Virus genome (UHGV): UHGV-2170436 | Origin: a virus | Reading direction: 5' to 3' (one strand) | Length of the DNA: 35,580 nt | Shown here: piece after piece, positions 853-27,121 of the stretch | How positions within the stretch are numbered: position 1 is the first letter of the stretch | Layout: the number at the start of each line of letters is the position of its first letter | The notes under the pieces: model-generated | Databases searched by the model: none | The model's input: only the letters and a program-made list of their open reading frames with translations | Told to the model about the DNA's origin: nothing | Position numbers and translations under genes: made by a program

Positions 853-978
853 ATGAAACAATTTCATGATGGCATTTCATCTAAGACATTCAAGAAAGAA
901 TATAGCGGCTTGTGTATTGACTGGATGGATTTGATTGGCGCGGTTGTGTTTGGTCTGATTATTAGTATTAACTTTTAA
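853..978 (+). CDS. small membrane peptide candidate (41 aa, C-terminal hydrophobic helix)
   Basis: ATG at 853 preceded by GGGGTGAG Shine-Dalgarno-like sequence; MKQFHDGISSKTFKKEYSGLCIDWMDLIGAVVFGLIISINF; below ORF-track length cutoff. Confidence 0.3.
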   Translation: MKQFHDGISSKTFKKEYSGLCIDWMDLIGAVVFGLIISINF

Positions 979-1023
979 CGATATAAATATATCGTAATTC
1001 AAACAACAAGAGGAAGTTCTACT

Positions 1024-1437
1024 ATGAAAAAGATTATCGCTGGTGTTGTTCTTGCTCTGGGTTTGGTTGGTGCTGCGAATGCTAATACCTATTATGTGTG
1101 TAATTCCTACTTCGAACATAAAGGAGATGATACACAATATCTTCGTGATGGCGACCGTTATTATCATGCGCCGTCTGGCAAATACCGTGGTTTTATCGGT
1201 GTAAAGGTTCGAGTGAATGATGATAATAGTCAATTTGCTTTCAACGATCCGGTATTTGATAAAACAATCAAAAGCCCAAAACTGAAAGAAGATAAGAACG
1301 AGAAAGAAGAATATTATGGTTCCGAAGATGGTAAATCCTACATCAAATATCTGCATTCTGTAGATGGCGCGCCTATATTTGATGTTAAAAAAGGTGATAC
1401 GTCTTATTCCCTGATTAGCTGCCGTGAAATTCTTTAA
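1024..1437 (+). CDS. secreted protein of unknown function (Sec signal peptide)
   Basis: N-terminus MKKIIAGVVLALGLVGAANA is a typical signal peptide with A-x-A cleavage motif; RBS agaggaag upstream. Confidence 0.6.
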   Translation: MKKIIAGVVLALGLVGAANANTYYVCNSYFEHKGDDTQYLRDGDRYYHAPSGKYRGFIGVKVRVNDDNSQFAFNDPVFDKTIKSPKLKEDKNEKEEYYGSEDGKSYIKYLHSVDGAPIFDVKKGDTSYSLISCREIL

Positions 1438-13667: not shown

Positions 13668-14054
13668 TTAACCGCTTCTGAGTTTCTCAAGCAAAGATGG
13701 ATCAAACATGTTCAGCATTGCCGCTTTACGTTCTTCTTCTTTCTTGCGTGCAATTTCTTCCAGTTCTTCTTTAGTTTTAAAGAGTTTTTCTTCTCTAATT
13801 AATTGGAATTGGCTAGGCTTGAGTTTGCGTGCAGTTTCGCGTGTCATTCCTTGCGACGTCATATACATGGAATATTGCAACATCGCATTCTGCATATCAT
13901 GAAACGCGGGGCTTTGTGGTTCTAAGTAGGTGTCGAAAATGTATAATTTCCAAAACAGAGTGATTGGCATATTATCCATTTCATCTTTACTAAGCCCCGA
14001 TCGCATCATTTGCCGAAAATAGAAATTCAGAAGCGGGTTTACTTTACCTCGTTT
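13668..14054 (-). CDS. tail assembly chaperone extension (gpT-like, putative -1 frameshift product with the upstream gene)
   Basis: Reading frame open from 14054 to 13668, in the -1 frame relative to 14039..14347 and overlapping it by 13 nt; no RBS before the internal ATG at 14009. Confidence 0.45.
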   Translation of the reverse strand, partial: KRGKVNPLLNFYFRQMMRSGLSKDEMDNMPITLFWKLYIFDTYLEPQSPAFHDMQNAMLQYSMYMTSQGMTRETARKLKPSQFQLIREEKLFKTKEELEEIARKKEEERKAAMLNMFDPSLLEKLRSG

Positions 14055-14347
14055 TCAATTACTGTCGGATCTTGCATCAATGACGCTTGAGCAACCAAAC
14101 CGATTAATTCACTGCGGACGTTAGTATACAGTGCCTTAACTTGTTCCATAGATTCAAATACTGGTTTACCGTCTTCATCTTCAATACAACGAAGAATAGA
14201 ACGTTCATCACGGTCATCTTTATCGGTATTGAAAACATGTTCGTTAAATTCTTTTACTGACATAGGGCGAGCATAGAAAGTGAATCCACCGATGGTCAGA
14301 GATTCGCGTTTCGGAGAAAGAGCTTTCAGCATTTCATTAATATTCAT
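14039..14347 (-). CDS. tail assembly chaperone (gpG-like)
   Basis: Small acidic protein immediately upstream of the tape measure, with an overlapping -1 frame ORF. Confidence 0.55.
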   Translation of the reverse strand: MNINEMLKALSPKRESLTIGGFTFYARPMSVKEFNEHVFNTDKDDRDERSILRCIEDEDGKPVFESMEQVKALYTNVRSELIGLVAQASLMQDPTVIENEVK

Positions 14348-14389
14348 TCTTGTTTCCTCTTAAGTTAATTCGATATGTTTATTTAGAAT

Positions 14390-14896
14390 TTAAGAGATTT
14401 TCAAAGTCTGCTTAGTGCCAGTCTTCTTAATGTTATTGAGGAAAGCTGCCGGAGGATTGCTTAACCAGTAGTAATGAAAACCACTTTGCATACTGTTATA
14501 AGGAACAGTGACAGCAGCACCACCCAAATTAACGGTTATATTCCCCGCTCTACCGTTCTGGAGATATACAGCCATAGTAGGAGTACCGCCATTGAATTGA
14601 CCAACGATAACGCCAATTAGACGGCCTACGCCCACGTTTTCGGGGTTCTCCATAGATCCTTTGCTTTGCATACCGGAAACAGGATAGTTTGAAGCAGTTA
14701 CACCCCAGTTATTACCCAATGAAGTAGACCACGATGCAGTAGCTACAACCGTATCCATACCACGACCAGCCATTGCCGACATATTACGCGGAGCCGGAAC
14801 TTTTAAAGCTGTTAATGCTTCTTTCATCCATCGCTTACCCGTCACCGATACAGCAGATGATCCGACCCAGCCGGGCTTATTAACGACATTTGCCAT
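14390..14896 (-). CDS. hypothetical tail-region protein
   Basis: ATG at 14896 with GGAG RBS; Gly/Ser/Thr-rich, no recognisable motif. Confidence 0.4.
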   Translation of the reverse strand: MANVVNKPGWVGSSAVSVTGKRWMKEALTALKVPAPRNMSAMAGRGMDTVVATASWSTSLGNNWGVTASNYPVSGMQSKGSMENPENVGVGRLIGVIVGQFNGGTPTMAVYLQNGRAGNITVNLGGAAVTVPYNSMQSGFHYYWLSNPPAAFLNNIKKTGTKQTLKIS

Positions 14897-14911
14897 TTTG
14901 ATTACTCCAAT

Positions 14912-14940
14912 AAAAAAGCCCCACCATTAAGGCAGGGCTT
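14912..14940 (-). terminator. Rho-independent terminator after extended major tail protein ORF
   Basis: Minus-strand RNA AGCCCUGCC-UUAAU-GGUGGGGCU (9 bp incl. two G-U pairs) followed by UUUUUU. Confidence 0.6.
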
Positions 14941-14944
14941 AAAA

Positions 14945-15070
14945 TTAATTCTTAGCCTTGCGGCCTCGTTTTGCTGTGGCTTTCGCCGTAACTTCTTCTA
15001 CTTCTGGAATCACCACCGCTTCATGTTCCGGTAGTGGTTCCGGTTCTATTAAAGGAAGTTCTTCGTTAGT
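14945..15070 (-). other. In-frame post-TGA extension of the major tail protein gene (41 codons; putative readthrough domain)
   Basis: Translates in the same frame as 15071..15541 as TNEELPLIEPEPLPEHEAVVIPEVEEVTAKATAKRGRKAKN, ending at TAA 14945-14947. Confidence 0.5.
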
Positions 15071-15541
15071 TCATCCGGCAGTGAAGATTTCCTGTTTGAT
15101 CGGCTTTCCGTCCACCGCGAAGGTAAACTCTTTGGTTACAACTTCTTCATCGCCACCGTTCATAGCAACTTTAGAAATAAAGCCGTTGAAAGCGGTGCGA
15201 ATACCAGTCTGTTTTGCTGCATCAACATAGTATTCAATCTTAATCTGAATTCGAGTACCGTCTTCGGCAGCTTTAATGAGCTTCTCGTGCACCGCATCGC
15301 CTGGGATGTAGTTAACGGTCAGAGTCAGATCAGGAACGTTCAGTTTCCCTACCAGCTTACGGTTATACTGAGAAGAGAAGGATTTAACTTCTACAGTACC
15401 GCGCTCGATACCAGTTTCAGGAAAACCAGCACACTCTTTAATTTCTTCGTAACCGGAGTGATCGAGAGCGGTGTTAGTGGTATCAGCGTGATAGAACAGA
15501 CTTACCAGACCACCAGTAAAAATATCATTAAATTGAGACAT
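15071..15541 (-). CDS. major tail (tube) protein candidate
   Basis: Position upstream of chaperone pair and tape measure; AAGGGG RBS; ends ...EIFTAG-TGA. Confidence 0.55.
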   Translation of the reverse strand: MSQFNDIFTGGLVSLFYHADTTNTALDHSGYEEIKECAGFPETGIERGTVEVKSFSSQYNRKLVGKLNVPDLTLTVNYIPGDAVHEKLIKAAEDGTRIQIKIEYYVDAAKQTGIRTAFNGFISKVAMNGGDEEVVTKEFTFAVDGKPIKQEIFTAG

Positions 15542-15597
15542 AGAATTACCCCTTAATTAAAATTGTTATTACGGGGGAACTAGTCCCCCGACTTTTA

Positions 15598-18500
15598 TTA
15601 TTTAGTTGCTTTGAGTTCGGCAATCTCTTTAGTCAATGCTTCAATCTTAGCTTGATATTTGGCGTCCATTTCCTGAATAGCTTTAATAATCAAGGCATTA
15701 ACAGCAGAGTTAGAAATAGTCTTAATTGCTTCCGGTTGTTCTGGATCTTCGGTGGATTGAATACCTACTGCTTCCGGCAACACTTCTTCCAGATCCTGAG
15801 CAATAATACCTACTTCGCGTTTAATCACTGTGTCATCTGAAAGAGATTTAACTTTATCGTAGGTGTAGACTTTCAGGGAGTTTACTTTCTCTAATGCGCC
15901 GTCCTGTAATTCTTCCTTGTTAATCTTCAAACGGGAGTCAGAGCGAATGTAAACATCGTTAAAGCTACCGTTACGACCTGCGGTAAAGTCACCATCCATA
16001 GTAAATTCCCAGCGTGCTTGCTGCCCGTTGGCGTTATCGCCACGCATACGGATAATACCAGTACGCCAACCGTGAGTCGAACCGCTACCCGTCCAACCAA
16101 ACTCGAAGGACTGACGATAACCAACATCACCTAAGTTACTATAGCCAGCGATAATAGGGAAATATGCACCAGACCCCTTAATACTATCCATGTTAACCAA
16201 GAATGGAGCACGGTCACGAGTTACATCAGAGATATCGGAATAACCTAAACCATTTTTGTTAGCAACAACAACACGACGGTTAAAGGTAATGCCGCCAGAT
16301 GTGTGACGAACAACATTAACGTTATTAGCGTAGGTATCAAGGACACCATCACCGTTTTGTTTAAATCCAGTATCACTATCGCCTAAAACAATAGAATTTC
16401 CACCCAATCCGTTAGCAACACCAACACCAAAACCGCTATTAAACTTAGGAATGGTTGCATCCTGACTAATAGACAGTTGGGGAGCGTTAATTTTACCGTT
16501 TACGCTAAACTCGATTGCGGTAGTACCAGGACCGCCAGCACGCTGTGTGTAGAAATGCCAGCCGCTTTCATCTGCGCATTCTAATACTTGTTTACGAGTA
16601 TCATTACCCCATGCACGAATATTGAAGCTAGATTGTCCGGTATTCTTACCCCATCTCATTTGACCAGCAACTTCAAGATCACCTAAGAAATATGCCTTTA
16701 GTCCACCTGTAGCCATATTACGTTCGGTGCTGAAATGGCGACCTTTGCTGTCTTCGAGGTATAAAACGTTATCACGGGCGTTGTTGCTATCGCCCCAATG
16801 ATTAAATCGAATATAATCACGCGATCCAGAACGCCCAGCGTCGAAAGTCAAAAAACCTTTCTTAATGTAAACGTCATTACTAAAACGAGCGGCACGGCTT
16901 GCACGTTCTAACGTTAATGCATCTTCGTTACCATCACCGCCTAATTGAACGTTACCGGAAGTCAGATCATAAATGAATGGTCGATAAGTATTCCAACCAC
17001 CAAACTTATCGTTTTCAGCCGTTGACAGAAGATAAACTTTTGCGGAGTCATTGCGCCAAAATGCACCATAATTGCCGTAAATCATACGGAATGCATTTGA
17101 GTTAGCAGCTACATACTCGCCGTTTGTATATACAATTTTAGTTGCACCAGTGGTAATAGAGCATTGACCGTTAGCTTCTAGCTGAAATGAGTTTTTCCCC
17201 TGATCGCTATACCATTGGAAGTTATTTGTTTCAGCACTACCAAAACCAATCCAACCTTGACGAGCATTAGCACCATTGCGGCGGTCTTGCCATTCAATAT
17301 AGTTTGATTGATTACTAGGACGCTCTAATCTAAGAACGTTTTGTCCGGCATCAAATACACCTTTACCAGTAAACATGGTGCGACCAGTGATTCGTAGAAC
17401 TTCGCTAGAATCGGTAGTACCAGTCGCTAAACGATAAACGTTACCTTGAACAGTTTCATGCCAGATTGTTTCTGCGGCTTTACTACGGAATTTACGAAGA
17501 TATTTTTTACCAGTACCTGAATCGTTATTCAAACTGACAATATCATATGTACCCTGTCCGTTATTATCAAACATCAACGTTCCGGCCTTGTTTTCGGTGT
17601 TGAACATTGTAATAACACGTCCATCTGTAACACCAGTAGACGGCTTAACGTTAGTCATAGCTGGGGTGTCATGAACAGTCAGTGAAACACCGCTAGTCTT
17701 ACCATATTCGACAATAACGTTATCAGTATAACGACCGTAGTTAACGTAAATGTCGTAGTTATCACCGGAAGTATTAACCGCAAATACTTGATGAACGTTC
17801 AAAGAGTTTCGACGATAAGCAGCAATACTAACGCCTTTCGGGTTATTGTTACCGGAACGGATAACAATTTCAAGGAAATCAACCTGATCATAGGAGTTAA
17901 CGTTATAACCATTACCACCGAAGATACGAAGCATTACCATACGACCATTTTGTGGGATCGTAGCCGTAGCAATCTTGAAATAAGCACGGGATTCACTACC
18001 AGAAGGAACAGACATTGTGACATTTTTAATAAACATCTTATCAATTTCGCCTTTGGTATATGCGCCAATTTCAGCAGGAGTCGGTTTATCCCCTTCGTGA
18101 TACATTTTATAGCTAAACGCTTTTTGTCCCTGAGCATCAAAACCATAGGTTTCAACACGAGATCCGCCAGACGCATAACGGAAAGTAAATCCTCGACCAT
18201 GCGCTTTACCGGAAGAGTGAGGAACGTTAAGGGTTAGATCCATGAGTCCATCTTGACCATTGGTACGGAATGCACCGAAGTAATTAAGATCTCTCGCGGT
18301 TGAATCTTCCAGATAGTTACCAGTCTTGCTATACAAATACGCGCCGTGATAGGTCTTTGTGTTCTTCTTGATATATGCTGCGTTAGCACTACCTTCAATA
18401 CCATCAATTCGCTTGTTGGCGGCTGTAATTGCGGCATCGGTCGATGATTTGTTCTGGTCTACCTTGTTGTTAATAGCGGTATGGTTACTATTCACAGTGC

Positions 18501-19206
18501 CAGTAAGGTTACTGATTTTAGTATCAGCATCTTTCTTGTTGTCGGAAACGACCTTTTCAATCGCTGTTTTGTTAGCTGCAACCGTGCTAGTTAAGCTAGA
18601 AATTTTGTTATCTGCATCGGTTTTATTTGCAGTAACAGTTTTAGTTAAGTTGCTAACGTTGGTGTTAGTGGTATTAACCTTGTTGTTAATCGCGGTGTTA
18701 TTGTCAGTGACCGTTTTCGTTAAAGCTGCATGTTTGCTATCTGCATCAGATTTGTTTGCGGCAACGGTTCTTTCAATTGCGGTCTTATTCGCAGATACGG
18801 TCCCCGTAAGGTTATTGATCTTAGTGTCGGCATCGGTTTTATTTGCCGTAACTGTCTGGGTTAAGTTACTAACAGTGGTGTTGGTAGCATCAATGCGCTT
18901 ATTGGTTGCGGTGTCTTTAGCGGTAATAGTCTGATTCAGTTCAGCTTTAACACTAGCCAGATTATTAGCGGCCTCTTGTTTGTTGGAAGCAATAACACGG
19001 TCAGTGCTAGTTTTATTCTGGTCTACTTTCGTGTTAAGTTCAGCGTGTTTTTCTGGAGAAACAGAGATTTGAACTACTGCGTTATTTTTATCTTTGGTAT
19101 ACAGAACGTGATCAGCAAGGTTAATAGCCAATTCACCCTGTGATAATTGTTCCGGCGTTGGTTTTTTACCAGCCGTTTGTGTGCGTTTAAATTGGATTGA
19201 TTGCAT
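15598..19206 (-). CDS. long (side) tail fibre protein with C-terminal intramolecular chaperone domain
   Basis: 1202 aa; N-terminal repetitive NKTDADTKI..LT.TV shaft repeats; C-terminus SDSRLKINKEELQDGALEKVNSLKVYTYDK matches the autoproteolytic chaperone (S74-type) signature of endosialidase/T5 pb1-type fibres. Confidence 0.8.
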   Translation of the reverse strand: MQSIQFKRTQTAGKKPTPEQLSQGELAINLADHVLYTKDKNNAVVQISVSPEKHAELNTKVDQNKTSTDRVIASNKQEAANNLASVKAELNQTITAKDTATNKRIDATNTTVSNLTQTVTANKTDADTKINNLTGTVSANKTAIERTVAANKSDADSKHAALTKTVTDNNTAINNKVNTTNTNVSNLTKTVTANKTDADNKISSLTSTVAANKTAIEKVVSDNKKDADTKISNLTGTVNSNHTAINNKVDQNKSSTDAAITAANKRIDGIEGSANAAYIKKNTKTYHGAYLYSKTGNYLEDSTARDLNYFGAFRTNGQDGLMDLTLNVPHSSGKAHGRGFTFRYASGGSRVETYGFDAQGQKAFSYKMYHEGDKPTPAEIGAYTKGEIDKMFIKNVTMSVPSGSESRAYFKIATATIPQNGRMVMLRIFGGNGYNVNSYDQVDFLEIVIRSGNNNPKGVSIAAYRRNSLNVHQVFAVNTSGDNYDIYVNYGRYTDNVIVEYGKTSGVSLTVHDTPAMTNVKPSTGVTDGRVITMFNTENKAGTLMFDNNGQGTYDIVSLNNDSGTGKKYLRKFRSKAAETIWHETVQGNVYRLATGTTDSSEVLRITGRTMFTGKGVFDAGQNVLRLERPSNQSNYIEWQDRRNGANARQGWIGFGSAETNNFQWYSDQGKNSFQLEANGQCSITTGATKIVYTNGEYVAANSNAFRMIYGNYGAFWRNDSAKVYLLSTAENDKFGGWNTYRPFIYDLTSGNVQLGGDGNEDALTLERASRAARFSNDVYIKKGFLTFDAGRSGSRDYIRFNHWGDSNNARDNVLYLEDSKGRHFSTERNMATGGLKAYFLGDLEVAGQMRWGKNTGQSSFNIRAWGNDTRKQVLECADESGWHFYTQRAGGPGTTAIEFSVNGKINAPQLSISQDATIPKFNSGFGVGVANGLGGNSIVLGDSDTGFKQNGDGVLDTYANNVNVVRHTSGGITFNRRVVVANKNGLGYSDISDVTRDRAPFLVNMDSIKGSGAYFPIIAGYSNLGDVGYRQSFEFGWTGSGSTHGWRTGIIRMRGDNANGQQARWEFTMDGDFTAGRNGSFNDVYIRSDSRLKINKEELQDGALEKVNSLKVYTYDKVKSLSDDTVIKREVGIIAQDLEEVLPEAVGIQSTEDPEQPEAIKTISNSAVNALIIKAIQEMDAKYQAKIEALTKEIAELKATK

Positions 19207-19286
19207 CTAGAATCACCTCACTATAAAACAGGAATAAGGGAGGCGTTAACCTCCCCGCGTCATGTTTTATTTAGGTAGGAGAATCC

Positions 19287-20120
19287 TTAGTATTCGCCGA
19301 AATCGATCCGGTCAGTCTTAGCCACTGCGCCAATTTCGCTAGGTGTCGGTTTCTCGTTTGTAGAATAGACTTTAATCCATTCAGATTTACCGTTTTCCTG
19401 AATATTTCGGACGCGTAAACGCGGTGCGCCAGAAGTATTACAGGTTAATTGCCATGCGCCATGCTCATTAGCTTGAAGATGAATTAACGATGTATCAGCA
19501 CCATAAGGGTTAGTGCTAGCAGTTCCCTTGTAAGTTACGAAACGGTTTCCTGTCAGAGATTCACTATCAATAGGACCACTGAAAGGATTTACACCAGCAC
19601 CGATACCAAAATCACCCTGACGTAAGATCCGGCCTTCGGTAGCAATACCCCTTGCCAAAATCCCGCCATCTGGTTCAAGTTTAAATTCCAGTGTTACAGC
19701 TTTGTTATCTGCGCCACGGGTTTTGTGACTAGTGACATAAGCGTCATAGATGACATAGTAACCAGTGTTAGCAGCACTATAGCCAGAGTTCACAACATAG
19801 AACATACGGAAGCGTAAAGGTGTTTTATCCTCTACCGCTTTCATCAACATTGCTTGATGTTCATCGTCAAGAACACGGTTTAATGTGAGTGTTGTCGGTT
19901 CCAGTCTACGATAACCAGCAAGTTTCCCCGTAGCGTCCTGATCGTACTCTTCCAGAGTTTCTATCTCTGTGGATTCGGTTAGCGTAGGGAATGCTGCGAT
20001 GTTCTCCATAGAACTAAAGCTAGGATCGAAAAAGTCGACCTGATTGTCTATCTGGTTAGAGATCGACACTTCAACATGTGATCCAGTGAAAATATCTAAG
20101 TTATCTTGTGTAATATTCAT
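19287..20120 (-). CDS. tail protein of uncertain role
   Basis: C-terminal KVYSTNEKPTPSEIGAVAKTDRID resembles an internal segment of the long tail fibre (KMYHEGDKPTPAEIGAYTKGEID). Confidence 0.4.
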   Translation of the reverse strand: MNITQDNLDIFTGSHVEVSISNQIDNQVDFFDPSFSSMENIAAFPTLTESTEIETLEEYDQDATGKLAGYRRLEPTTLTLNRVLDDEHQAMLMKAVEDKTPLRFRMFYVVNSGYSAANTGYYVIYDAYVTSHKTRGADNKAVTLEFKLEPDGGILARGIATEGRILRQGDFGIGAGVNPFSGPIDSESLTGNRFVTYKGTASTNPYGADTSLIHLQANEHGAWQLTCNTSGAPRLRVRNIQENGKSEWIKVYSTNEKPTPSEIGAVAKTDRIDFGEY

Positions 20121-20129
20121 TATTACCCC

Positions 20130-20552
20130 TTAAAAACGCGCTAGATAAGAAAATTTAAGGCTAAGTGTCCCAACGATACCCCCATCACTAGAATCATCGT
20201 CATAATCGGTATTAGAGGCTACTGGAGTGATATCTGAAATAGAGAAGCCCAAATCTTTAAAACGTGGGTTATCCGGCTGAATCTGGATTATCTGGCAAAT
20301 ACCCTCATGGATTTTTGTTTCATGAATCTGAGAATATAATTGCATTTCGATAACGCATTCAGCTTGCATTGCATTACCACCACGGACCCTAGTGTAAGTC
20401 TCATTCATGCCAGTAATCCAACAAACCACGTCATCACTAAAACCTTGCTGAGTTTGTTCTACGTTTAAAGCCAGACCTAAATCTTGTTCGATAATATCTT
20501 GCAAGGCGCGTTTGATTTTCAGTCTAGGCATATTATTAACGGTAGCGAGCAT
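20130..20552 (-). CDS. hypothetical head-tail joining/completion protein
   Basis: Start set at ATG 20552 with AGGGGG RBS; position between capsid and tail genes. Confidence 0.35.
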   Translation of the reverse strand: MLATVNNMPRLKIKRALQDIIEQDLGLALNVEQTQQGFSDDVVCWITGMNETYTRVRGGNAMQAECVIEMQLYSQIHETKIHEGICQIIQIQPDNPRFKDLGFSISDITPVASNTDYDDDSSDGGIVGTLSLKFSYLARF

Positions 20553-20826
20553 GTGTACCCCCTGCCAGAGTAATAAAGCAATCAGTGGTATTATCACCAT
20601 TGCGCTTAACGTATTGAACTTTGAAACGCTGGTTTTCTACAATGACAATATCACCCTGATTTAAGTCTCCCTCACGACAGAATAGAAATTCGGTTTCTGT
20701 CATTACCCCCGATTCGTCGGTAGTAGTAATTTCATGATAAGCACGAATTGATTTACCACCTTCCACCGAAAATACAGGAGCACTCTTAAACATTCTTGAT
20801 AATTGTGATTCTGATAATTTGAACAT
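20536..20826 (-). CDS. hypothetical head-tail connector protein
   Basis: Start set at ATG 20826 (MFKLSESQL...) with AGGGGG RBS; first gene after the capsid terminator. Confidence 0.35.
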   Translation of the reverse strand: MFKLSESQLSRMFKSAPVFSVEGGKSIRAYHEITTTDESGVMTETEFLFCREGDLNQGDIVIVENQRFKVQYVKRNGDNTTDCFITLAGGTHARYR

Positions 20827-20856
20827 AGTTACCCCCTTTATGGAGTATTTACATAC

Positions 20857-20882
20857 AAAAAAGCCCCGCACTAGGCAGGGCT
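20857..20882 (-). terminator. Rho-independent terminator after extended capsid ORF
   Basis: Minus-strand RNA AGCCCUGC-CUAGU-GCGGGGCU followed by UUUUUU; related in sequence to the terminator at 14912-14940. Confidence 0.6.
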
Positions 20883-20887
20883 AATTA

Positions 20888-21016
20888 TCATTCTTTAGGC
20901 TTGCGGCCTCGTTTTGCTGTGGCTTTCGCCGTAACCGTCTGGGATTCTTCTTCCGGTTTAGGAATCAGATTTTCTTCCCCCGAATCGGGGGAAGGTTCAG
21001 AAGGTTCTACAGGAGT
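20888..21016 (-). other. In-frame post-TGA extension of the capsid gene (42 codons; putative readthrough domain)
   Basis: Same frame as 21017..23071; translates TPVEPSEPSPDSGEENLIPKPEEESQTVTAKATAKRGRKPKE, ends at tandem stops TGA-TAA; contains no in-frame ATG/GTG/TTG. Confidence 0.5.
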
Positions 21017-23071
21017 TCAGTCAACTTTTTTCTGAACTACGGTCAGTGCGCTATGGTCCATAACAGCCCAATCCAGATCAGCCCATACACGGAAGTACAG
21101 GTTGCCAGCCGCGCGACCTGTGGTATCGTCGCAATCCAGTTCCAGCGATCCGAAGTCTGCAACAACAAGGGAGCTAAAGTCACCAAACAGCATGGTATCC
21201 TGAGCAACTACACCAGAGCCATAGATCGGACGGTTAACCAGTTTATCGCCTTCTACCAGGAAGCCCGGAACATTAGCTGCTTTGAGTTGCGCTGCCAGTT
21301 CAGCTTTAACAACACCACGGGTAGCAAATGCCAGATCCGCTTCGTTATAACCTTTGTCGGTCAGTTCAGCTACCAGTTTCAGGAACTCGGCATAGGTCCA
21401 ATCAATCTGTTTAACTTTGCCAGCGTCGGTCAGGATCTTAGTCAGACCATCACGAGCGTTAGTGTTAGCAGCATTGGACAGAATCGCTTTTTCCAGAGCG
21501 ATAGCACTGTGTTTCAGCATGTGCTCACCAACGATAGCGCCAATATTGGGCAGTGTGATTGCAGCCTGACGCGTTACAGGAACAATTCCGTTAAAAGTCT
21601 TGAGAGTCATCGGCTGCGCTGCAAACTTAATAGTACCTTCACCAGCGGATTGACCTTCTGCAACAAAACCGAAGTTTTCCAGATTGCTGGAAGTCAGAGA
21701 CGGCAGAGAAACAGGACCAGTTGCGTTAATGGTACGCACACCCAATTTACCCAGAATAGAACGTTCCATGATCATATCAACGAAGCAATCATGGCGGATT
21801 TCTTCACCAACTACTGGTTTCAGAGATTCCATGTTCTGGCTAGCACGCAGAGCGGACGCCGGAATGAATACGGAGTTAGAACGCTGCGCACGACCACGCG
21901 CTGCGGCTTTACGTGCTTCTTCCTGAGAATATTCAGCTTCTGCGCCAGTCAGGGCTTTACCCTCTGCGATTGCACGTACAGCTTTATTAAGATCGAAACG
22001 GGATTCCAGAGTTTTAATGGTATCGGTCATGGTAATTTTTCCTTTAACAAAAGTTTTAGATTCGGTAGTATTTAGTGCGCGTGCTTTTTCTTTAAAATTT
22101 TCAATAGTCACGGCACTATCTTTAATTGCAGCTTCAATCACGTCTTCGGAGATATTTAGATGTTTTCCGATAGCACGAATTTCGGCGGTATCTTCGCGAG
22201 AACGTTCAAACGGTTTTTCTTCGTCTTCAATCTTTTCTTCTTCGACTGGTTCGGATGTATTTTCCGTTTCGTCGTTCTCGTCTGTATCTTTATTTAGTTC
22301 TTCTGTTTCTTCCGGTTCATCTTCGGAACGTTCTTCTTTTTCTTCTGGCGTTACTTCTTGCGGTTCTTCCACATCTTCGCCACTGTCAGCACTATTTCCA
22401 GAATCGGAATCAATTTCTTCATTTTCTTGTTCCTCTTTCTCTTCTTCGGAACGTTTTTCTTCATCTTCCGGTTTAATTTCTTCGACCGGAGTATCTTTAA
22501 TTTCGTCTTCCACTTGTTCACCCTCCAAAACAATCATTTCGTTGTCTGTATTTAGAGAGCGTCCAACACCCGCATTAAATGGATCTGCGGCACACGTTAC
22601 AAGACTGCATTCGAAAGGTTGCCAGCGTGTAACATAATAGATCCCTTTGTTAAAATCGGCTTTGCCATCAAGAACGTTATAACCGACGCTAACTTGTGAA
22701 AGTGTTCCCTCTTTTACCTTCTCAAAGCATTCATTAGCCAGTTGGCCTACTTTGGAGAATTGGACAAGGCAACGACCTACACGGTCTTCGTCAATACGAG
22801 CGGAGCCAGGAACAATCTTGCCGATATGAAGATCCAGATTGTGATTAAACAGAAGACTTGCGTTAGTCTCGTTTAAAACGGATAGATCAACCGCTGATTC
22901 ATCGTGTACGAGAATCTCTTTTAATTCGACTTGCTCGCCGTCCTGATTCATGTAATAACGTGTATAAGGAGCCTCGCTTGAGAAAGCCAATTCAATAATT
23001 CGTTCGTCTTTTTCTTCGATAAAATCAGGGGTATCTACCGCAACACTACGACGGAATTGTTTTGTTGTCAT
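21017..23071 (-). CDS. prohead protease - scaffold - major capsid protein fusion
   Basis: 684 aa: N-terminal ~170 aa protease-like region, highly acidic Glu/Asp-rich linker, C-terminal ~400 aa capsid-like domain; follows the portal gene. Confidence 0.65.
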   Translation of the reverse strand: MTTKQFRRSVAVDTPDFIEEKDERIIELAFSSEAPYTRYYMNQDGEQVELKEILVHDESAVDLSVLNETNASLLFNHNLDLHIGKIVPGSARIDEDRVGRCLVQFSKVGQLANECFEKVKEGTLSQVSVGYNVLDGKADFNKGIYYVTRWQPFECSLVTCAADPFNAGVGRSLNTDNEMIVLEGEQVEDEIKDTPVEEIKPEDEEKRSEEEKEEQENEEIDSDSGNSADSGEDVEEPQEVTPEEKEERSEDEPEETEELNKDTDENDETENTSEPVEEEKIEDEEKPFERSREDTAEIRAIGKHLNISEDVIEAAIKDSAVTIENFKEKARALNTTESKTFVKGKITMTDTIKTLESRFDLNKAVRAIAEGKALTGAEAEYSQEEARKAAARGRAQRSNSVFIPASALRASQNMESLKPVVGEEIRHDCFVDMIMERSILGKLGVRTINATGPVSLPSLTSSNLENFGFVAEGQSAGEGTIKFAAQPMTLKTFNGIVPVTRQAAITLPNIGAIVGEHMLKHSAIALEKAILSNAANTNARDGLTKILTDAGKVKQIDWTYAEFLKLVAELTDKGYNEADLAFATRGVVKAELAAQLKAANVPGFLVEGDKLVNRPIYGSGVVAQDTMLFGDFSSLVVADFGSLELDCDDTTGRAAGNLYFRVWADLDWAVMDHSALTVVQKKVD

Positions 23072-23113
23072 AGATCACCTTGAAAATTATTGGGGGCATT
23101 GCGCCCCGTTGGG

Positions 23114-24637
23114 TTATTCATTTTGAGTATCAGGAGATTTTTCTTTTTCAGTCTCACCCTCACTCACGACGCATGTATTTAGCATGTGTTTTTCTGCCTC
23201 AATTTCTTTAAAGACCTGAGACGGATCTTGACCCATTTCCATAATGACCTGAGCTTTAGACTTCAATCCGCTTTCTATTAACAGAACTTCACTCTGAATA
23301 TCTTTGATCGGTTCAATAGACGTAACGCGAGGTCTAATAATTGTCGTTGCATCCAAAATAGAATCGATCTGCGTCATGCGAACATTGATTTTTGAGTTAA
23401 TTACCGCGTGACGTAAAAACGCCTCAAATAATGGAAGAATAACAGTATCAACTAAGCGATCTTGATGCGTCTTGAAGCGAGCGGATTCAATATTATGACC
23501 GAATTTTGCTGATGAGTAGTTAATAGAACTTGTATCTCCTGTAAGAGCTTGTTTAAAGCTAGACAGACCCATAGAAATAGAAGTCAGCATTGCTTCATTG
23601 AATTTTTCGAAATCATCGCCGCCTTGAGTTGATTGTACCGTTTTAACGTCTTGCCCCGGTTCCAGTATATTGATAGTACCCGGTTCGAAGTCAGTGATCA
23701 TTGTTGGCGGTTGATAGTTTTCCGTGTCATCTTCACCAACATCAAATGAATCTTGATTTTCTTTATCGCTTGTGATAAAGGCCATGCTGCTTGCGTGCAC
23801 GCGCTTACCGATTATTACAGTCTCGCGGAACGCTTCAAGATGAGCTATATCTTTGATTATTGGCAAGAAATCAGTAATACCACGTAATGCGTCGGCTGTA
23901 CCAGGGATAAAGTAATGCAGCACTCTTTCCGCCGGGATTCGTACACGTTCGCCAGTAAAGGACTGAGTAAACAGGTCACGACGCCTAAACCAATATGCAA
24001 CGGGCTTTTCATCTTCATATTCGATGCCAGCGTAAACGACATTACCGTTATCTAAGGTGCGCTGATCTGACCAATCAACACAATCCGCACCATAAATGGA
24101 TACTTGCAGATCCTTACCATCTTCATGGAGTACCAGAAACGCATCACCACCCATCACGCGCTCTTTTTCCATCAACTTTAAGCATTCAAGGAAGTTAATC
24201 TTTCCGATGCGCGAGAATCGTTTCTGAGAGCTAGCCCAACGCCAAAAAGCATTCTCAATAGCGGTGTTAGTGGTTGCGTCCAGCTTTTCCCCTTTCATAA
24301 CGAAGGTTCGAGGCTGTAAGCCAGTACCTACCACGGAATCAATAACGTGTTGGCAATAACGGGAGCCAATAGAAGTGTTTAACGCAAGATAACGGCCTTG
24401 ATTGTATAGACGTGATGCGGACCCCTTAATCGCGCTGTTAATGCTGCCAGTGATGACATTACGCGCCATACTTCCTTCAATGCGGTCGCTTTCAACCAAT
24501 CCCAAAGAGCGTTTATGTAAGTCTTTGGTAAATTCTTCAATCTTGCGATCTACAAATAATTTGCGGTGTTGGCGAATACCGATTTTCTTAACCGGATTCA
24601 CGGGCATATCTTTTTTGCGTTTGAAAAAATTAAACAT
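23114..24637 (-). CDS. portal protein
   Basis: 507 aa, positioned between large terminase and capsid, acidic C-terminus. Confidence 0.7.
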   Translation of the reverse strand: MFNFFKRKKDMPVNPVKKIGIRQHRKLFVDRKIEEFTKDLHKRSLGLVESDRIEGSMARNVITGSINSAIKGSASRLYNQGRYLALNTSIGSRYCQHVIDSVVGTGLQPRTFVMKGEKLDATTNTAIENAFWRWASSQKRFSRIGKINFLECLKLMEKERVMGGDAFLVLHEDGKDLQVSIYGADCVDWSDQRTLDNGNVVYAGIEYEDEKPVAYWFRRRDLFTQSFTGERVRIPAERVLHYFIPGTADALRGITDFLPIIKDIAHLEAFRETVIIGKRVHASSMAFITSDKENQDSFDVGEDDTENYQPPTMITDFEPGTINILEPGQDVKTVQSTQGGDDFEKFNEAMLTSISMGLSSFKQALTGDTSSINYSSAKFGHNIESARFKTHQDRLVDTVILPLFEAFLRHAVINSKINVRMTQIDSILDATTIIRPRVTSIEPIKDIQSEVLLIESGLKSKAQVIMEMGQDPSQVFKEIEAEKHMLNTCVVSEGETEKEKSPDTQNE

Positions 24638-25216: not shown

Positions 25217-27121
25217 TTAGAACGATGTTACCCAGCTACGGCCTCTATTTGGGCGTCTGGCGATGTTTTGACGTTGTGGTCGTGTGATTGGCTTAGTTTC
25301 TTCGATTTGCTCGTCAGATTGCGTTTCAGGAGCTTTTACGGGTTCTTCTGGTTCACGGTTCAAACTATCTTTGATGGCTTCGAGTTTTTCCCATGACATT
25401 TTATTGAGTACATGGCGAGAAGCAGCATAGGAATAAGCCAGGCAGTCGAGAGCCTCGTTTCGTTGCTGACCAACTTTTACCCAACGTGTGGTATTACCCT
25501 GCCGTTTCAACTGTTCAGAAAGCAATTGCTCGCAATAGTCATCAGGAACGTCACCAATCTGGAAGACAGTATGAGGATCGCCATCTCTCAAGTTCCGGTT
25601 AATCATTTCACGGATCATCGTCTTAAGGTTGTTTACGCCCAGAATTTTGAGAGTAAAACCGCCCGTTCTTGTGTCCTTAGCCGGAAGGATTGGAGCATCA
25701 GCATTACTTGCGCCTTTAATGGCGCATAGGTTTTGCCACCTAGTGCAAAAACGGTAGATCACGTTTGTAGCTCGTCCGTTCGATGAGTCCACGAAAGCAG
25801 ATAGCATCGGGATTCGTTCACCGGATCGGGTATAGAATTTCGCTTTCAGGAAGTTATAAAGCTGGTCATATGCTGGTGATTCGTGGCGTTCGCAGTTCAC
25901 ATCATAGAATGATCGGTGATCAACTACGCATATCCCCTTACGAGAGATACCCAGCAAGGTAGATTCCAGACGGTCTTTTTGCTGGTCAACTCCACCTACC
26001 AGAGCCAGTACATCATCAGGAATATTGTCTAGGCTAATATCAGTTTTCAGCGTTTCCAGTTCGTCGGCTGTGCGATCTTCGTTAAGATCATCGAAGGTTT
26101 CACCGAGGACTGTATTGTAGAACGTTGCTAGTGACATATTCGCGTAGCTATCAGCAAAGTCCACCACACACGCACGGATAGAACTAAACGGAGACATAAG
26201 GCGGTTAGCATGAAAACCGATTACTTCCGCATTTGGTTCTGTAGCAATCCATTCACCTTGAGCAACAGCACGTAGGCGATCCCCTTCTGTCCAATCAGTT
26301 TCACATGACGGGCAACGATAAACGGCAGTATCTGGATTCGGCAGTGATTTACAGTTAATCGTATGCCAATCAAAGAAAACTCTACTCCATTCCATTACGT
26401 GCTTGTGTCCGCAATGCTGGCAAACGACATGATATTTTCTCTTATCCGAGAGTTCCCATTGTTGGTTAATCGCCCCATCACGAGCGGTTGGAGTGGAAGC
26501 AATTACGATCCTTGCATCTTCCCCGAAAGTGGTTGCGCGTTGTTCCGCTAGCTGGATCGGGTTCCCTTCGTCTGACTCATCAGCCGCATCAACTTCATCA
26601 AGAATAATCAAAGGGAGTGTTTTACCGCGAAGATGTGACGGACTATTCAACGACATGAAATACATAAACGATCCGTTACGAAGCTGAATAATCGATGAGT
26701 TGTTAACGGCATTGCGATCTGATTTGTCGGTGATCATCGCCTTTAATTCTGGTGTTGCCTCTAATACTGGCTTCACCTTACCAGCGATCCAGCTATTCAA
26801 CTCGCGGACATTCGATTGCAACACCCCGATATTAGTAGGGTTACTCGCGATCCGATGGAAGATAATTCCGTTAAGAATCATGGTCTTACCCAACTGTGCC
26901 GAACATTTAAACACAATTTTTCTACGGTCTTCGGTGATCGCGTCCATCATTCCACGTTGGAAGGGATGCAATTTAATTAGCGATCCGGCTTTAACACCAT
27001 CGGTCGCAACTACATTAGCCTCTACCCATTCGCTAGGTTTCATGGTTTTAGGTGGACGAATTGCAGCAGAGATATTTTTGAGAATCTTTTTTAATTTTGC
27101 CTTATTAGAAATCAGTTTCAT
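25217..27121 (-). CDS. terminase large subunit (lambda gpA-like)
   Basis: Walker A CSAQLGKT, Walker B LPLIILDEVD, Cys-rich nuclease region; GAGGGT RBS before ATG at 27121. Confidence 0.85.
   Translation of the reverse strand: MKLISNKAKLKKILKNISAAIRPPKTMKPSEWVEANVVATDGVKAGSLIKLHPFQRGMMDAITEDRRKIVFKCSAQLGKTMILNGIIFHRIASNPTNIGVLQSNVRELNSWIAGKVKPVLEATPELKAMITDKSDRNAVNNSSIIQLRNGSFMYFMSLNSPSHLRGKTLPLIILDEVDAADESDEGNPIQLAEQRATTFGEDARIVIASTPTARDGAINQQWELSDKRKYHVVCQHCGHKHVMEWSRVFFDWHTINCKSLPNPDTAVYRCPSCETDWTEGDRLRAVAQGEWIATEPNAEVIGFHANRLMSPFSSIRACVVDFADSYANMSLATFYNTVLGETFDDLNEDRTADELETLKTDISLDNIPDDVLALVGGVDQQKDRLESTLLGISRKGICVVDHRSFYDVNCERHESPAYDQLYNFLKAKFYTRSGERIPMLSAFVDSSNGRATNVIYRFCTRWQNLCAIKGASNADAPILPAKDTRTGGFTLKILGVNNLKTMIREMINRNLRDGDPHTVFQIGDVPDDYCEQLLSEQLKRQGNTTRWVKVGQQRNEALDCLAYSYAASRHVLNKMSWEKLEAIKDSLNREPEEPVKAPETQSDEQIEETKPITRPQRQNIARRPNRGRSWVTSF

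Follow-up and report, generated by a model that had tools for sequence, protein, structure and literature searches.

Does the major tail protein gene of the virus genome UHGV-2170436 end at its TGA stop codon, or is the in-frame stretch behind that codon also part of some of its products? The DNA analysed here, hereafter the window, is the whole stretch of 35,580 nucleotides (nt) presented for that genome; it is a temperate siphovirus-type prophage of Escherichia coli, and its sequence is identical to a region of strain HCP5S3_I4. A first-pass annotation, made from the letters alone, had proposed that a putative major tail protein gene on the minus strand is followed by an in-frame extension, that the capsid gene is built in the same way, and that both extensions are reached by apparent stop-codon readthrough. 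The comparative sequence evidence (TGA followed by A, and an open frame 0) supports this last proposal, and the best explanation is probably a programmed leaky UGA-A stop in the tail tube gene and, in parallel, in the capsid gene. With much the same confidence, we consider that the extension is translated by UGA readthrough and kept by selection.

The identity of the tail gene was examined at the level of sequence, fold and gene position. The product of its open reading frame (ORF), of 156 amino acids (aa), matched the Pfam family Phage_TTP_11 with a score just above the cut-off (29.0 against 28.4 bits), and the core of its AlphaFold2 model had pLDDT values of 84-93. A Foldseek search with this model retrieved the tail tubes of lambda (gpV), YDC107, 80alpha and SPP1 with E values from 3e-7 to 4e-3, the structures matched being 8k36 and 7t2e (both of the lambda gpV tube domain), 9mfe, 6v8i and 6yeg. 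The ORF is located between the head-tail genes and the chaperone and tape-measure genes, and its neighbours gave weak matches, below the Pfam cut-offs, to TAC (21.5 against 28.8 bits) and Phage_tail_T (21.8 against 25.9 bits). By its fold and sequence matches and its position, the 156-aa ORF therefore encodes a lambda-gpV-like tail tube protein, so the putative major tail protein of the first-pass annotation was correctly named.

Read on the minus strand, the end of this gene is ...GCC GGA TGA (15073..15071) ACT (15070..15068) AAC GAA GAA ... AAG AAT TAA (14947..14945) TTT TAA (14941..14939), and the order that had been described, with TGA, ACT, a frame open for 41 codons, TAA and a terminator, was right to the base. 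The stretch would encode a linker that is acidic and proline-rich, with a net charge of -9, and then a tip that is basic, TAKATAKRGRKAKN, with a net charge of +6. The terminator hairpin (14940..14916) was the top match of a terminator scan; it starts 4 nt past the first TAA of the extension and folds with an energy of -17.6 kcal/mol (z -3.3). An independent start inside the extension was considered and rejected, as no start codon with a ribosome-binding site is present there. An ATG overlaps the GGATGA of the tail junction, where it opens an ORF of two codons only (ATG AAC TAA), and it is absent from the capsid junction. PGAP leaves both extension stretches unannotated in every genome examined.

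The same architecture was found in the capsid gene as far as TGA ACT, the in-frame extension and the terminator are concerned, although the capsid extension has 42 codons and not 41 (Table 1). In the capsid ORF, an S78 prohead protease and an HK97-type major capsid protein are fused with a spacer between them; the spacer is highly Glu-rich and repetitive (repeat family D1, window 22184..22482, within the gene at 23071..21017, minus strand), and the head modules of phiHAP-1 and VP882 carry a protease-spacer-capsid fusion like this one. The capsid and tube proteins are the two most abundant virion proteins of this prophage. TAA is the stop codon of 18 of the 20 genes in the virion module, and TGA is used by the capsid and tube genes only, in both cases with A at position +4.

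Table 1. Features of the tail tube and capsid gene ends, with their coordinates in the window.
Feature	Coordinates	Strand	Details
Major tail (tail tube) protein ORF	15074..15541	-	156 codons; Pfam, AlphaFold2, Foldseek
Predicted leaky stop TGA of tail tube gene	15071..15073	-	+4 base A at 15070
Tail in-frame extension	14948..15070	-	123 nt = 41 codons; translates to TNEELPLIEPEPLPEHEAVVIPEVEEVTAKATAKRGRKAKN
Strong extension end, TAA TTT TAA (two in-frame TAA)	14939..14947	-	relatives: TAA TTA TAA
Intrinsic terminator after tail extension	14907..14940	-	10-bp stem AAGCCCTGCC/GGTGGGGCTT and T run
36-nt block GTTACGGCGAAAGCCACAGCAAAACGAGGCCGCAAG (V-TAKATAKRGRK)	14957..14992	-	identical to 20900..20935 in capsid extension
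Capsid gene, 684-codon single ORF	21020..23071	-	Pfam Peptidase_S78 and Phage_capsid
Predicted leaky stop TGA of capsid gene	21017..21019	-	GAC TGA ACT; +4 base A
Capsid in-frame extension, 42 codons	20891..21016	-	TPVEPSEPSPDSGEENLIPKPEEESQTVTAKATAKRGRKPKE
Tandem stops TGA TAA closing capsid extension	20885..20890	-	relatives: TAA TAA
Intrinsic terminator after capsid extension	20856..20882	-	hairpin 20882..20862; near-identical to the tail one

The two extensions share DNA at their ends. A 33-nt probe from the 36-nt block had exact matches at 14957..14989 and at 20900..20932, whereas 100 shuffles gave 0 matches, and the block sits in a 63-nt repeat of 87% identity that reaches into the terminator (repeat family D5). 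The shared terminal motif is therefore partly explained by a common DNA block (36 identical nucleotides and a near-identical terminator), and it reflects most simply a duplication or gene conversion, not two independent inventions. This bears on the claim that the shared architecture is unlikely to have arisen by chance: the duplicated motif and its conservation argue for it, whereas a lone open frame is not rare and the motif is in part that common block. A frame open for at least 41 codons after the stop was found in 7 of the 37 window ORFs, mostly because the next gene shares that frame, and the chance of 41 open codons, (61/64)^41, is about 0.14. The significance of the open frame thus comes from the duplicated motif and its conservation in relatives, not from one open frame.

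Two further observations concern the mosaic nature of these ends. A mosaic junction coincides with the capsid stop codon (window 21017..21019; loci L002-L063), where one and the same block of TGA, extension, terminator and head-completion genes follows two capsid alleles with only about 40% identity in their last 300 residues. Shuffling of the terminal tips (KRGRK, KKQRK, KKVGRPPKAK) is independent of the linkers, and it also occurs between the two genes, capsid and tail.

Conservation was followed in fetched loci, of which 23 were E. coli chromosomal, 43 came from IMG/VR and 14 from metagenomes, together with loci of Edwardsiella, Salmonella and Providencia; the comparison of stop codons took in about 115 related loci, from IMG/VR, metagenomes and E. 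coli genomes. Counted in two locus sets each (main plus metagenome), which may share some contigs, TGA ACT was present in all of the extension-bearing tail loci (43/43 + 8/8, total 51), and TGA followed by A with an open frame 0 in all of the extension-bearing E. coli-type capsid loci (54/54 + 7/7, total 61). Every E. coli-type capsid gene has TGA then A, plus an extension of 27-45 codons, and this arrangement is kept across two capsid alleles whose proteins share only about 40% identity. Tail tube alleles that lack the extension, which are 42-74% identical, have TAA as their stop in 29/29 + 5/5 loci, and in those of E. coli the TAA directly abuts the terminator. The identity of the stop tracks the tail extension perfectly, being TGA-A in its presence and TAA in its absence.

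Loss of the frame in relatives had been named as the finding that would speak against the proposal; the frame was found conserved in the 51 tail and 61 capsid loci and in Providencia. Frame 0 was free of stops in all 51 unique extension sequences (19 from tail and 32 from capsid genes), and frames +1 and +2 contained stops in every one of them. The tail extensions of relatives measure 108, 117, 120 or 123 nt and the capsid extensions 81 to 135 nt in eight steps, so that all 12 distinct lengths (4 tail and 8 capsid) are multiples of 3; as these lengths need at least 10 net indels, chance would produce this with a probability of about (1/3)^10. No in-frame stop has arisen in spite of at least 105 substitutions, for which the chance is about 0.17 and 0.06 for the two genes. 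The extensions end in strong, usually doubled stops (TAA nnn TAA, TAA TAA or TGA TAA).

The composition of the encoded peptide is specific to frame 0. Asp, Glu and Pro make up 50% of the linker in this frame against 7% and 9% in the other two, and Lys and Arg make up 51% of the last 10 codons against 31% and 24%. The basic tip in frame 0 holds across 15 distinct terminal DNA modules, among them KRGRKAKN, KRSRKAKD, KKQRKTKE, KKERKTKAK, KKVGRPPKAK and KRRKSK. AlphaFold predicted the extension (residues 157-198) to be disordered, with pLDDT values of 38-53, and no Ig-like or FN3 domain of Pfam was matched in it even at E<=10, nor any other Pfam family above its threshold. The extension signal points to a peptide, although a loosely constrained one.

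More distant relatives were also compared. The capsid gene of Providencia sp. JUb39 ends in ...NSLPA TGA ACT AAC, followed by TNEELPEEEPLPVATEKSTKRRKSK, TAG and a terminator, and its extension differs from that of E. coli by a diverged sequence and a 2-codon indel. The tube protein of Edwardsiella tarda ends in ...NVIPEAVAAKEK, which resembles ...VVIPEVEEVTAKATAK and is ordinary coding sequence with no intervening stop; from this constitutive end it is seen that a tail of this kind can belong to the protein in the ordinary way. The capsid gene of the same species ends in ...CGC TTG GTA AAG CAA GGG TGA TAC... (L026 2740..2870; also L027 and L064). Its in-frame continuation is short and unrelated to the E. 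coli-type extension, which is found instead in the -1 frame as GKARVIPTGREEVSVKSGRKPKTDN, followed by a stop and a terminator, and a G_GTA_AAG heptamer lies 6 nt before the capsid stop. Either the same device exists here in a -1 frameshift form, or a 1-nt indel has led to the decay of this copy; both are possibilities only. The Salmonella relatives have short basic ends only (...SGLRK, ...EASKAK) and TAA stops, and phage DCP80 has TAA stops without such an extension. A hairpin and a short Lys-rich ORF, MSLGAEALDAAPVKKSKSASG, were observed in DCP80 (L001 6570..6680) between the capsid TAA and the terminator; the capsid frame downstream of the TAA is broken there by three stops.

In the mechanism that we propose, most ribosomes would stop at UGA-A, and the tube subunit would have its normal 156 aa. 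Judging from the context and the conservation, a small minority of perhaps 1% would instead decode UGA with Trp-tRNA(Trp), a near-cognate decoding in competition with release factor 2, and would go on for 41 codons to the strong TAA-nnn-TAA stop. UGA followed by A is described as the E. coli context most prone to misreading by tRNA-Trp (Engelberg-Kulka 1981, as cited in PMC5289835), and reporters in E. coli K-12 show a basal readthrough of UGA of about 2% when measured at 37 C and of 4% at 25 C (PMC10570021). The predicted readthrough junctions are QEIFTAG-W-TNEELPLIEPEPLPEHEAVVIPEVEEVTAK for the tail protein and VD-W-TPVEPSEPSPDSGEENLIPKPEEESQTVTAK for the capsid protein. The product would be a tube subunit with a disordered C-terminal appendage, in which an acidic, Pro-rich tether of about 27 residues would carry a tip of the form TAKATAK-R-G/S-RKAK. 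From the genome of about 35 kb and the 809-aa tape measure protein of the window, about 400 capsid and about 170 tube subunits were estimated per particle, and a few of each would carry the extension. Held at low copy by the leaky stop, the extended form would leave lattice assembly undisturbed, following the same logic as Qbeta A1 and the Listeria phages.

As to where the extensions would lie, the external decoration domains of lambda-type tube proteins attach at the C-terminus, and HK97-fold capsid proteins carry C-terminal additions on their outer side. Because the C-termini point outwards in lambda gpV, SPP1 gp17.1* and T7 gp10B, the extensions would be external, cation-tipped whiskers on head and tail. 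A speculative role for such whiskers, suggested by analogy, is weak, non-specific binding to polyanionic surfaces such as lipopolysaccharide (LPS), capsule, mucus or DNA, which would help adsorption or retention in a manner analogous to Ig-like decorations. Our confidence in any specific function that the extensions may have is low.

Several points weigh against translation by readthrough under selection. Wild E. coli is generally held to terminate at UGA more efficiently than K-12, and actual readthrough may for that reason fall well below 1%; moreover, every step beyond the DNA sequence is one that we infer. The tail extension is absent from 34 of the 54 E. coli genomes with relatives and, as many relatives do without it, it is not essential to this tail type. 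For the tail, the ratio of non-synonymous to synonymous change (dN/dS) was 0.41 in the extension, a value below 1 that speaks for translation, and 0.12 in the body of the gene; for the capsid gene the values were 0.66-0.81 and 0.14-0.21. Amino-acid constraint on the extensions is thus weak, and the exact peptide sequence therefore matters little. These values are typical of disordered linkers and are not strong evidence alone; together, the codon-position and dN/dS tests gave moderate support, and strong purifying selection on the peptide is not claimed. In addition, the extensions show about half the synonymous divergence of the gene bodies, third codon positions are nearly invariant in the best-conserved block (GTTACGGCGAAAGCC...), and small hairpins with a few compensatory changes overlap the extension coding sequence. 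The low synonymous variation hints at nucleotide-level constraint or recent gene conversion.

A search for relatives with a sense codon in place of the TGA found none, which also counts on that side. One candidate of this kind, the 198-aa tube-W-extension protein P0001, was rejected, as its DNA has TGA; it is a gene call in L025 (ENA contig k141_243218, 41..637) by a caller that used the TGA=Trp code (code 4), and this artefact happens to display the predicted tail readthrough product. Another profile search, made with fused capsid ends, was dominated by low-complexity words, and no fused protein came out of it.

Among the other explanations, antitermination is unlikely. It holds that translating the extension matters, and not the peptide: a readthrough ribosome would cover the 5' arm of the hairpin and allow downstream transcription, and stopping at UGA would leave about 125 nt of naked RNA on which the terminator works, so that the ratio of the abundant protein (capsid or tube) to the low-copy products of the downstream genes would be fixed. 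A constant distance of 4-8 nt separates the extension stop from the terminator stem, in the tail and capsid genes as well as in every relative, and the frame is kept open with an amino-acid sequence that is weakly constrained (dN/dS 0.4-0.8). Both sites are also places where expression must fall from hundreds to few, from capsid to head-completion proteins and from tube to the gp38-like, chaperone and tape-measure proteins, and a readthrough of about 2% (PMC10570021) would be of the same order as the copy-number ratios. Antitermination leaves unexplained, however, why an acidic, Pro-containing linker and a Lys/Arg tip should appear in frame 0 only across the 15 terminal modules, and why the Edwardsiella tube protein should have a similar end constitutively. 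Extension-less tail alleles put a plain TAA beside the terminator, so the family works without the device, and antitermination would require a tight coupling of the polymerase to the leading ribosome. As an additional function, alongside the peptide, antitermination may nevertheless operate.

It is improbable that the stretch is a passive 3' region or a relic of a longer ancestral ORF, with any readthrough being irrelevant noise. One 41-codon open frame after a stop would fit such a relic, as would the low synonymous divergence, the lack of PGAP annotation in the stretch, and the sharing of extension, TGA and terminator, as one mosaic block, by very different capsid alleles; because these elements move together, many of the loci are not independent observations. 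A relic is contradicted by twelve lengths that are all multiples of 3, by the absence of in-frame stops despite at least 105 substitutions and by the perfect split between TGA-A and TAA according to the presence of the extension; the composition specific to frame 0 and the doubled strong stops at the end of the extension also speak against it. The layout is also kept in Providencia in spite of the diverged sequence and the 2-codon indel. Moreover, the surrounding structural genes are under purifying selection (dN/dS 0.12-0.21), which indicates a living phage lineage in which decay would show.

A third possibility, which we hold to be very unlikely, is an RNA element duplicated after two late genes of high expression, for example 3' stabilising hairpins or a small RNA that derives from the 3' untranslated region and ends at the terminator, to which the open frame would be secondary. 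Hairpins in the extensions are located at window 20955..20995 and 14957..14985 (minus strand). The long capsid extension has an 8-bp hairpin, CUUCCCCC/GGGGGAAG, that is perfectly conserved and varies in its loop alone, and in the short capsid extension a hairpin of 11 bp begins 10 nt past the TGA. GNRA-type mini-hairpins (GGC-GAAA-GCC and GGCC-GCAA-GGCU) are also present in the extensions. Compensatory changes were seen from GGC-GAAA-GCC to GGA-GAAA-UCC, with GGU-GAAA-GCC as a further variant, and from GGUGG-GACGU-CCACC to GGCGG-GUCGU-CCGCC; the extensions fold better than shuffled sequences (z -2.2 and -3.7), and their low synonymous variation would also be accounted for. On the other side, an Rfam search of 14000..23500 at E<=1 gave no match, covariation amounts to two or three events only, most pairs never varying, a strong conserved hairpin is missing near the stop in the tail extension, and among the three linker versions of capsid and tail the hairpins differ or are absent. 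Nor does an RNA element predict indels in multiples of 3, the absence of stops in frame 0 or the TGA-A rule. The hairpins may be an RNA-level constraint laid over the coding sequence, and such a second layer could explain the low synonymous divergence.

Dedicated decoding, whether by selenocysteine insertion, by a suppressor tRNA, by a genetic code with TGA=Trp, or by frameshifting or hopping, is scarcely credible: a hairpin does lie 10-22 nt downstream of the capsid TGA, and one public gene call (P0001) did translate the tail TGA as Trp, but that call is the code-4 artefact described above, all other genes are intact under the standard bacterial code 11 with TGA at ORF ends only, no frameshift is needed for an extension in frame 0, the hairpin loops GAAA and GAUUU are unlike the SelB-binding loop of E. 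coli, and a special device is not indicated, since there is no tRNA gene in the window, no Rfam match and no conserved hairpin after the tail TGA.

The leaky UGA-A stop can also be placed in a broader reading, which we offer tentatively, as possible rather than probable when all of its parts are taken jointly. The extensions would be a natural low-valency display on both head and tail by tRNA-Trp leakage, encoded by a shared, recombining 3' module in a temperate tailed phage. The module would be reached by several routes, namely readthrough in E. coli and Providencia, possibly -1 frameshifting at G_GUA_AAG in the Edwardsiella capsid gene, and in-frame coding in the Edwardsiella tube gene. Readthrough may, in addition, tune the adjacent terminators and so set the stoichiometry of late genes.

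Relatives of the window prophage were present in 54-55 of 5,426 complete E. coli genomes (about 1%). Megablast of the window against 50,697 phage records gave no match at the DNA level, and the nearest sequenced phage, Escherichia phage DCP80, is related at the protein level only (about 45% identity in the tail tube protein and 43% in the terminase). A plasmid search with the window gave no match, and no relatives were found in either of the scans of the Genome Taxonomy Database (GTDB) species-representative genomes with the capsid and tail alignments. The virion genes are read from the minus strand, beginning with the terminase (27121..25217), the portal, the protease-capsid fusion (23071..21017) and three head-tail genes, and ending with a 1,202-aa tail fibre, the 156-aa ORF (15541..15071), a gp38-like adhesin, two tail chaperone ORFs, the tape measure and tip proteins.

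The gene between the tube and chaperone genes (window 14390..14896, minus strand) has the N-terminal domain of the T4 Gp38 adhesin (Pfam Gp38_N, E 2e-15). In the E. coli loci whose annotation was read, except L018, it occurs together with the tube allele that bears the extension, and the extension-less loci L021-L024 have three small genes upstream of the tube gene in its place. Insertions of IS2 or ISKpn26 and homing-endonuclease genes of the GIY-YIG or NUMOD3 type were found in the head-tail and tail-fibre region of L005, L018, L021, L022, L023 and L024, and these prophages, although disrupted in part, keep both extensions intact. Of the two tail chaperone ORFs, the first (14347..14039, minus strand) ends in GAG GTA AAG TAA (14050..14039), and the -1 frame from G_GTA_AAG (14048..14042) is open into the second chaperone ORF, 14009..13668, whose Pfam match to Phage_tail_T is weak and below the cut-off. 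This arrangement looks like the usual G/GT -1 frameshift, with the same heptamer as the Edwardsiella capsid end. The sequence GGTAAAGTAA was found in 62 of the 102 fetched loci. Outside the virion module, a 159-aa ORF (877..1356, minus strand) has a TGA + A stop followed by 30 open in-frame codons.

Longer capsid or tail isoforms produced by recoding in tailed phages are, to our knowledge, known only through frameshifting, and coat readthrough of this kind is a textbook case only for the RNA phage Qbeta. Full-text literature searches found no report of stop-codon readthrough in the capsid or tail genes of tailed phages. If the proposed readthrough is true, this would be, as far as those searches reach, the first programmed stop-codon readthrough in tailed-phage structural genes; tailed phages would also exploit the leakiness of host termination, and the prophage would offer an easily testable model in E. 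coli genetics. The composition of the virion would then be tied to host physiology, because UGA readthrough varies with temperature, cyclic AMP (cAMP) and the level of tRNA-Trp (PMC10570021). A systematic blind spot of annotation would be exposed, both stretches being left out by PGAP, and the short acidic tether with its basic tip would constitute a new kind of virion surface appendage, with a possible role in adsorption or retention on polyanionic surfaces.

The first-pass annotation had drawn a parallel with phages in which frameshifting lengthens the capsid protein as well as the tail protein, and the comparison is apt: Listeria phages PSA, A118 and A500 produce C-terminally extended capsid (Cps) and tail shaft (Tsh) proteins by programmed ribosomal frameshifting (PMC5009743). 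There, as is proposed here, both of the most abundant virion proteins of one siphophage yield a minor, longer isoform from a single mRNA by recoding at the 3' end. The Listeria phages, however, use +1 or -1 frameshifting at slippery proline or other codons, whereas the extensions of the window lie in frame 0 behind UGA-A, share a DNA module and a terminator, and are short and disordered in prediction, not folded domains. Because its extension is in frame 0, the window case falls outside the frameshift group.

In Qbeta (Leviviricetes), the A1 protein is made when a leaky UGA is decoded by host tRNA-Trp, so that a few coat subunits per particle are extended, and the same is proposed for the window. 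The A1 extension is about 200 aa long and is needed for infection. Qbeta is a single-stranded RNA phage with one such gene and a large, folded extension, whereas the window is a temperate, double-stranded DNA tailed phage with two such genes and predicted disordered extensions of 41-42 aa.

Ig-like or FN3 decorations, added by frameshifting or encoded in frame, are known from T3/T7 gp10B, the C-terminal domain of lambda gpV and SPP1 gp17.1* (PMC5009743). The extensions would resemble them in being attached at the C-terminus and pointing outwards, as presumed weakly adhesive accessories that are sometimes substoichiometric. They differ in lacking such a domain and in being of low complexity and predicted to be disordered, and an acidic tether with a basic tip is not described among those decorations. 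Some of the tips (KKVGRPPKAK, KRGRKPK) hold a G-R-P or R-G-R core flanked by lysines, as in the AT-hook (PF02178). This assignment was rejected, as the best variant reached 13.1 bits against a cut-off of 17.4 (E 0.09) and three other variants gave no match. The sub-threshold match is thus confined to one variant, and KKQRKTKE and KRSRKAKD lack the core; the property common to the tips is positive charge, not an AT-hook.

In engineered low-valency lambda display, a suppressible stop codon separates gpV or gpD from the peptide fused to it. Occasional readthrough gives there, as it would in the window prophage, a mosaic virion in which a few tube subunits are extended at the C-terminus and which still assembles. 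The engineered system is man-made and depends on amber suppression, whereas the window case appears to be its natural equivalent.

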